A DNA stretch of 64,000 bases. It comes from a virus. Numbering within the stretch: position 1 is the stretch's first letter; the number at the start of each line of letters is the position of its first letter. The translations under genes and the position numbers were made by a program. The stretch is from IMG/VR virus record IMGVR_UViG_3300024346_000007, one strand, 5' to 3'. A model generated the notes under the pieces. That model saw only the letters and a program-made list of their open reading frames with translations, had not been told where the DNA came from and did not search any database. Shown piece after piece: positions 22,620-22,918 of the stretch.

Positions 22620-22918
22620 GCTGTTGTTCTTTAACTTATTTTACTTTTTGTTAATTAATTTGTTTTCTAATTTGTCGCAACGTGAATCTACCATACGAAT
22701 AATCTCATCAGCACGATCTCCTAGGTGCCTGTAGACTTCTTCTATGTTATGAGATACGTCTCTTTGAGTATCATCAATTTCTTTCTTTACTTGATTTACC
22801 TTAACGAAAGCATAAACAGCAACTATTGCAATTACAATAACTACCACAAACGCTATCCCTAAAATGAATGATAATGTTTCCATAATTTATTTCTCCTTAT
22901 ATGTCAAAGAACAACAGC
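22620..22918 (-). repeat. 20-nt inverted repeat (22620-22639 / 22899-22918) enclosing one gene; includes boxA-like GTTCTTTGACA
   Basis: GCUGUUGUUCUUUGACAUAU pairs with AUAAGUUAAAGAACAACAGC (19/20 incl. one G.U). Confidence 0.85.
22641..22883 (-). CDS. single-pass membrane protein with coiled coil
   Basis: N-terminal TM, C-terminal DSRCDKL; leader contains AAGGAG. Confidence 0.7.
   Translation of the reverse strand: METLSFILGIAFVVVIVIAIVAVYAFVKVNQVKKEIDDTQRDVSHNIEEVYRHLGDRADEIIRMVDSRCDKLENKLINKK

Follow-up and report, generated by a model that had tools for sequence, protein, structure and literature searches.

The window analyzed here, the whole stretch of 64,000 nucleotides, belongs to a viral contig of 78 kb from IMG/VR (IMGVR_UViG_3300024346_000007) that is estimated to be 46% complete and encodes a family-A DNA polymerase, a ribonucleotide reductase, a DnaB-type helicase, and GroEL. 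The minus strand is the coding strand of the genes surrounding the locus described here, and on this strand we observe, from 5' to 3', a tRNA-like fold (22921 to 22998), the leader strand of a long-range helix (22899 to 22918), the Shine-Dalgarno sequence AAGGAG (22893 to 22898), an open reading frame (ORF) of 80 amino acids (22641 to 22883), the trailer strand of the helix (22620 to 22639), and tRNA-Met(CAT) (22542 to 22616). The gene-enclosing module is compact, with about 45 nt of flanks: the leader strand lies 2 nt after the tRNA-like fold, the Shine-Dalgarno sequence sits just 3' of the helix, outside the pairing, and precedes the ATG of the ORF, the trailer strand starts 2 nt past the stop codon, and tRNA-Met starts 3 nt after the trailer strand. 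These coordinates agree with an earlier sequence-only reading of the locus, which had described an inverted repeat of 19/20 bp around exactly one gene plus its leader, beginning 2 nt after the tRNA-like fold and ending 3 nt before tRNA(CAT). The arms are 20 nt each, with 18/20 Watson-Crick pairs; read as minus-strand RNA, 19/20 positions pair around the 80-codon ORF, with one G.U pair and one A.A mismatch. Neither the window nor the 78-kb record contains a further copy of the arm sequence, two matches occurred in 0/100 shuffles, and the minimum-free-energy fold of a 461-nt region contains the helix.

The tRNA-like fold has an acceptor stem, a T arm, and one irregular central hairpin; it scores 31 bits against the Rfam tRNA model and is not called by ARAGORN. 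The ORF product is predicted to be a single-pass membrane protein with an N-terminal transmembrane helix and a coiled coil. Its clusters contain viral proteins only and have no assigned function, and comparison with Pfam, PHROGs, and Atlas gave weak transmembrane and coiled-coil resemblances only (DUF948, ZapG-like, and DUF4446, all below threshold). Conventional signals were also considered and rejected: a sigma-70 promoter reading of TTGACA lacks a conserved -10 element at suitable spacing and would place the transcription start within the ORF, and a terminator reading of the trailer finds no U tract behind it. No minus-strand terminator was detected in 21600 to 24100.

The nearest cultured phages are the Flavobacterium phages vB_FspM_immuto (PolA 54% identical), and we infer an uncultured phage with a Bacteroidota host. 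In the cultured-phage collection, tRNA-Met is the sole DNA match, and the ORF has no homologue.

The helix is conserved by compensatory change

Scanning the ORF product against viral contigs yielded 49 related loci with protein identities of 31 to 92% and ORFs of 80 to 123 codons. A best-helix script, comparing the 120 nt before the start codon with the 120 nt after the stop, recovered a helix of 11 to 22 bp at the same place in all 49/49 loci carrying the ORF, with the 5' strand beginning 32 to 44 nt before the ATG in every one. The outer part of the helix varies by lineage while its complementarity is kept (GCTGTTG, AGTTACTG, AACAATTATTG, ACTATCG, AAGTGAG, AAGGCTACTG, and AAGGAAAG). When 26 distinct arm pairs are anchored on the core, 97.7% of positions are paired over 17 bp, against a mean of 87% and a maximum of 91.4% for shuffled arm partners.

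An independent prediction, RNAalifold applied to 27 whole elements aligned with MAFFT, returned the same long-range helix with 16 bp. Across these 27 distinct sequences 99.1% of cells pair, compared with 33 to 58% when the partner columns are slid; 7/16 pairs are changed on both sides, with 48 double-change cells, and 0/500 shuffles attain the values of the real alignment for pairing, double-change cells, or covariation score. The non-Watson-Crick cells comprise 36 G.U on the coding strand versus 1 A.C, indicating selection on the sense RNA rather than on the DNA or an antisense transcript. The helix is a conserved RNA structure of the sense strand and not a product of chance, and, as in the leader-trailer helices of rRNA operons, its long-range complementarity is kept by compensatory change. 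The pairing that the sequence-only reading had drawn for the window is thus conserved among relatives, with compensatory changes in its arms (49 loci, 27 distinct sequences).

The helix is not uniform. In the L031 group it extends inward from the boxA described below rather than outward, and some helices are short or interrupted, such as those of L003 and L004 with 12 bp plus an internal loop. The most distant homologue, L049, has no boxA, yet carries at this position a perfect helix of 11 bp, unrelated to the others, indicating that pairing is kept even without boxA. The Shine-Dalgarno sequence never lies within the helix in the related loci. As to the ribosome-binding signals themselves, they differ by lineage, with helix and boxA kept: the group of the window has a strong AAGGAG, and in L026, L027, L029, L035, L036, L046, and L050 the ORF is preceded by an A/T-rich leader only, with no Shine-Dalgarno sequence.

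The leader strand carries a boxA of the host rRNA type

Within the leader strand of the window lies the 11-nt core GTTCTTTGACA (22902 to 22912, minus strand), which as GTTCTTTGACA(TAT) is near-invariant among relatives whose proteins are just 31 to 92% identical. The two strands of the core are unequally constrained: the 5' core GTTCTTTGAC(AT) shows 5 variants, all transitions at three positions, versus 14 variants in the 3' core (the complement of boxA), mostly A-to-G changes that retain U.G pairs. The leader strand is therefore constrained beyond pairing, whereas all that is required of the trailer is pairing.

The core matches 10/11 positions of GYTCTTTAANA, the boxA consensus of gamma-proteobacteria (PMC5725501), and the variant GTTCTTTAACA found in relatives matches this gamma-proteobacterial consensus at 11/11. 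The boxA of Bacillus subtilis, AUGAUCUUUGAAA, which binds NusB, also has G at position 8 (PMC13753749). In nearly all loci with a tRNA or tRNA-like fold upstream, the distance from the 3' end of that fold to the core ranges from a few nt to about 14 nt and is 8 nt in the window; the core ends about 20 nt before the ATG. Both the consensus match and the position, in the leader or spacer of a stable-RNA operon, are those of an rrn-type boxA.

For comparison with the presumed host, we collected 119 metagenome contigs (L053 to L171) picked by a Bacteroidota-type 16S 3'-end pattern. The exact 11-mer GTTCTTTGACA occurs in 22/109 Bacteroidota-type 16S-23S spacers, mostly 350 to 580 nt past the 16S end, and GATCTTTGACATAT is present in many more spacers than the exact 11-mer. 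The spacer boxA usually reads GTTCTTTGACATATTG or ...CATGNTG (the core, then TATTG or TG-TG). G[TA]TCTTTGACAT was found in 18/42 operons that also have a readable 16S leader, and a sister form, GTTCTTTGAAA, in 24 to 26 of the 42 readable 16S leaders, 90 to 280 nt upstream of 16S. This two-copy arrangement, leader plus spacer, is the classical one for boxA, known from E. coli (PMC10250234). Because of the exact match in spacers and the sister form in 16S leaders, the phage core is, judged by its sequence, a host-type boxA in its spacer (pre-23S) version; the boxA-like stretch that the sequence-only reading had seen in the 5' arm is identical to this Bacteroidota spacer element.

The resemblance extends to the surroundings of the core. 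Three spacers (L092, L115, and L155) have the boxA 6 nt after a tRNA 3' end, as in the phage, and in 3/8 contigs that extend past 23S (L093, L118, and L168) the best 23S leader-trailer pairing overlaps boxA; in some operons it begins inside boxA. As a working consensus suggested by these operons, a Bacteroidota boxA may be written GTTCTTTGAAA in the leader and GTTCTTTGACATATTG or G(T/A)TCTTTGACAT(A/G)TTG in the spacer. In the literature on a Bacteroidota boxA, we found nothing specific and no published statement of such a consensus.

The helix belongs to one ORF family within phage tRNA arrays

The upstream neighbor of the ORF in relatives is tRNA-Leu(TAA), tRNA-Ser(TGA), tRNA-Gln, or an uncalled tRNA-like fold, so that many relatives have a true tRNA where the window has the tRNA-like fold. 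Downstream we find tRNA-Met, tRNA-Leu, tRNA-Glu, the next ORF, or a terminator, and in many relatives the trailer is followed by just the next ORF or a terminator, with no tRNA. Where the ORF is flanked by tRNAs on both sides, the helix begins 0 to 5 nt after one and ends 2 to 5 nt before the other.

As a control, all inter-tRNA gaps of 150 to 1,600 nt in the related loci were scored for a flanking helix. Such a helix is found solely in gaps holding this ORF (scores of at least 14.5 versus at most 12.4 elsewhere). We therefore rejected the idea that ORFs within tRNA arrays carry such a helix as a rule: other ORFs of the same arrays lack the helix, which is thus not the general way of embedding genes there. 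The boxA also occurs alone in relatives, preceding tRNA-Phe (L027, L029, and L036), directly after terminators and ahead of tRNAs (L036:3690 and L045:1125), and, in L022 and L023, 3 nt ahead of tmRNA genes. No boxA was found upstream of tmRNA in the window.

An rRNA-style processing module as the preferred reading

We interpret the element as a miniature boxA and leader-trailer module of the rRNA-operon kind, built around a protein gene within a phage stable-RNA operon, and assign this reading a probability of roughly 55%. Its core is observed, namely, the helix, the covariation of the sense RNA, the invariant boxA, the identity with the host rrn element, and the position flush with tRNAs. Nus loading, cleavage, excision, and stabilization of the mRNA would be added to this core, and the mRNA is probably produced and excised in the manner of an rRNA precursor; excision and stabilization are reasonable to infer because the helix lies flush against the flanking tRNAs. 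The element resembles an rRNA helix in its working but falls outside that family, since what it encloses is an ORF of 80 to 123 codons and no ribosomal RNA.

In rRNA operons, the leader-trailer helix is a substrate of RNase III. There, boxA nucleates a NusB-S10-NusA-NusG-SuhB complex on RNA polymerase that resists Rho and, in the proposed mechanism, keeps the leader close to the RNA exit channel, so that pairing follows once the trailer emerges (PMC10250234). Applied to the phage locus, host RNA polymerase would pass through the tRNA-like and tRNA genes before it transcribes the leader strand, whose spacer-type boxA would load NusB-S10 and the rest of the rrn antitermination/chaperone complex. 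About 280 nt later the trailer would emerge and pair with the leader, boxA included, forming a helix of 16 to 22 bp flush with the tRNAs, which would separate the ORF from the tRNA folds and whose length is compatible with an RNase III substrate. RNase P would cut at the downstream tRNA-Met, and the upstream tRNA or tRNA-like fold would be trimmed at its 3' end, so that the released mRNA of about 300 nt would have paired ends with 2 to 3 unpaired nt each and would be shielded from end-dependent nucleases. NusB and RNase III are both present in a Bacteroides control genome; the 78-kb phage record has neither. That one phage mRNA passes through the whole of this host rRNA pathway, from Nus loading and helix closure to excision by RNase III and tRNA enzymes and a stable message, is a tentative proposal to which we give somewhat less than an even chance.

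Several observations weigh against the module. The boxA itself is paired once the helix forms, the 12 bp plus internal loop of L003 and L004 are marginal for RNase III, and RNase P cannot be what sets the 3' end at the many loci with no downstream tRNA. The interpretation given by the sequence-only reading holds in part. Its likeness to an rRNA precursor is borne out more strongly than that reading could have foreseen, by the conserved compensatory helix and the identity of the core with the Bacteroidota spacer boxA; the accompanying idea of circularization is without support, as set out below.

Alternatives weighed against the data

A regulatory switch would account for some of the same features. 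Nus factors recruited by the boxA, which lies about 20 nt ahead of the start codon, could repress or time translation in the manner of E. coli suhB. Alternatively, the trailer could serve as an anti-boxA, removing NusB-S10 from the RNA beyond the ORF and thereby abolishing termination resistance ahead of the downstream genes. The distance from boxA to the ATG falls inside the 50-nt range in which boxA regulates suhB, among other genes (PMC5725501), the entire boxA is covered by pairing with the trailer, and the ORF family is always accompanied by this boxA. The helix retained by L049 in the absence of boxA is hard to reconcile with such a switch, which in its pure form moreover requires no helix flush with the flanking tRNAs. 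The Shine-Dalgarno sequence, never part of the helix, likewise speaks against it, and the overlap of helix and boxA does not have to mean a switch, since host 23S helices overlap boxA too. We regard a switch as unlikely, if worth keeping in mind. The helix of L049 and the flush spacing to the tRNAs would equally suit a helix that does nothing but protect the ends of an mRNA freed by tRNA-processing enzymes, with no role for Nus factors or RNase III and a core conserved for some other cause. This is a rather improbable account, given a core that is near-invariant across proteins as diverged as these and identical to the host rrn element, lone copies of boxA that precede tRNA blocks and tmRNA genes, and the many loci in which no tRNA follows the trailer.

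A 20-bp inverted repeat around a unit of about 300 bp, sitting between different tRNA pairs in different phages, could also be taken for the terminal repeats of a MITE-like mobile cassette that carries the ORF between tRNA genes. This reading is largely refuted already and in our estimate very improbable: there is a single copy per genome, the flanks show no target-site duplication or direct repeat, the arms are not equally constrained as those of a MITE would be, with a host rrn signal in the 5' arm, and the 36-to-1 excess of G.U on the sense strand is not favored by recognition at the DNA level. Circularization of the excised RNA, which the sequence-only reading had entertained, has a parallel in archaeal rRNA precursors, which undergo it, and the paired ends would bring the 5' and 3' termini together. 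We know of no bacterial precedent for it, and none was found. The 78-kb record (46% complete) encodes no RtcB or RNA ligase, and the helix is continuous apart from one A.A mismatch, with no bulge-helix-bulge motif (two 3-nt bulges 4 bp apart). A ligated circle is thus scarcely credible here, and the linear, rRNA-style module remains our preferred reading.

Relation to known systems

The combination of boxA and leader-trailer helix is regarded as an rRNA device, with a few boxA sites known ahead of ordinary genes. The present element is real and strongly conserved, and in it the boxA and leader-trailer helix of the rRNA operon are reused by phages around an mRNA. Compared with the rRNA operons of E. 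coli (PMC10250234) and of the Bacteroidota contigs L053 to L171, the phage boxA is the same as the Bacteroidota spacer boxA, it likewise comes right after a tRNA, a covarying long-range helix of 16 to 22 bp flanks the enclosed RNA, and, as in some host operons, the leader-trailer helix (of 23S in the host) overlaps boxA. Unlike rRNA operons, the phage helix encloses an ORF of 240 to 370 nt with its own ribosome-binding site and not a 2.9-kb rRNA, the element is phage encoded, and in helices of the window type boxA lies wholly within the paired region.

Other boxA sites outside rRNA operons, at suhB and other genes and at CRISPR arrays, likewise lie less than 50 nt from the start codon (PMC5725501; PMC12360218). 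Unlike the phage module, suhB-type boxA elements are chromosomal and gamma-proteobacterial and have no conserved gene-enclosing trailer complement. The nut sites of lambdoid phages (boxA and boxB with protein N) also place a host-type boxA on a phage transcript (PMC2724277), but the lambda nut site does not belong to a helix that encloses a gene, and neither a boxB hairpin nor an N-like protein was identified in the present phage.

Pairing between the 5' and 3' untranslated regions (UTRs) of bacterial mRNAs and the RNase III sites of T7 share with the phage element the control of nuclease access by paired ends. Those structures are local hairpins or short UTR contacts, with no boxA and no tRNA flanks. 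In our literature search, we found no description of boxA with a leader-trailer helix around a phage protein gene and nothing specific on the boxA of phage tRNA arrays.

Dozens of diverged phages keep a boxA, in the form of the host spacer signal, and a helix around one small protein gene among tRNA genes. If the inferred steps hold, an mRNA could be expressed from within a stable-RNA operon, and phages would have a further route to the host Nus and rRNA-processing machinery that needs no lambda N-type protein; a protein-coding RNA matured like rRNA would be the first of its kind.

Further observations on the arrays and the window

The lone boxA copies ahead of tRNA-Phe in two relatives may have partners of their own. 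L027:1082 may pair with L027:3427, and L029:1855 with L029:4268, over 16 to 17 bp; the downstream partner lies just after tRNA-Glu, about 2.3 kb on, and overlaps the start codon of the next ORF. The significance is weak, since 1/40 shuffles scored higher for L027, though none did for L029. An outer leader-trailer helix may surround a tRNA block in these two loci, with the ORF helix nested inside. tmRNA genes adjoin the tRNA arrays in L005, L007, L011, L014, L015, L021 to L024, L028, and L047, and the tags of many of these tmRNAs are unusually long, ending in ...GADYALAA or ...YAVAA.

Upstream of the ORF in the window, the minus strand of 23000 to 23620 holds a conserved structured RNA that is richer in G+C, spans about 400 nt, contains no ORF, and ends in the tRNA-like fold at 22921 to 22998; Rfam has no family for this RNA or for the helix. 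Homologues of the structured RNA are found at L006:2290-2680 and at about 3320 to 3420 of L011, where it lies downstream of the ORF. A second tRNA-like element (23177 to 23270, minus strand) has the same acceptor stem and T arm as the fold at 22921 to 22998, combined with a Leu-type D arm; it scores 39.6 bits against the Rfam tRNA model with permissive filters, is not called by ARAGORN, and lies within an insertion of about 300 nt relative to the closest relative, L006.

Elsewhere on the minus strand of the window, we observe a group I intron at 26660 to 26883 (Rfam, 97 bits) and the GroEL-like chaperonin at 43638 to 45293 (PHROG 5725, E value of 4e-147), whose single match among genome contigs is to a Caldisericota MAG at 45% identity.
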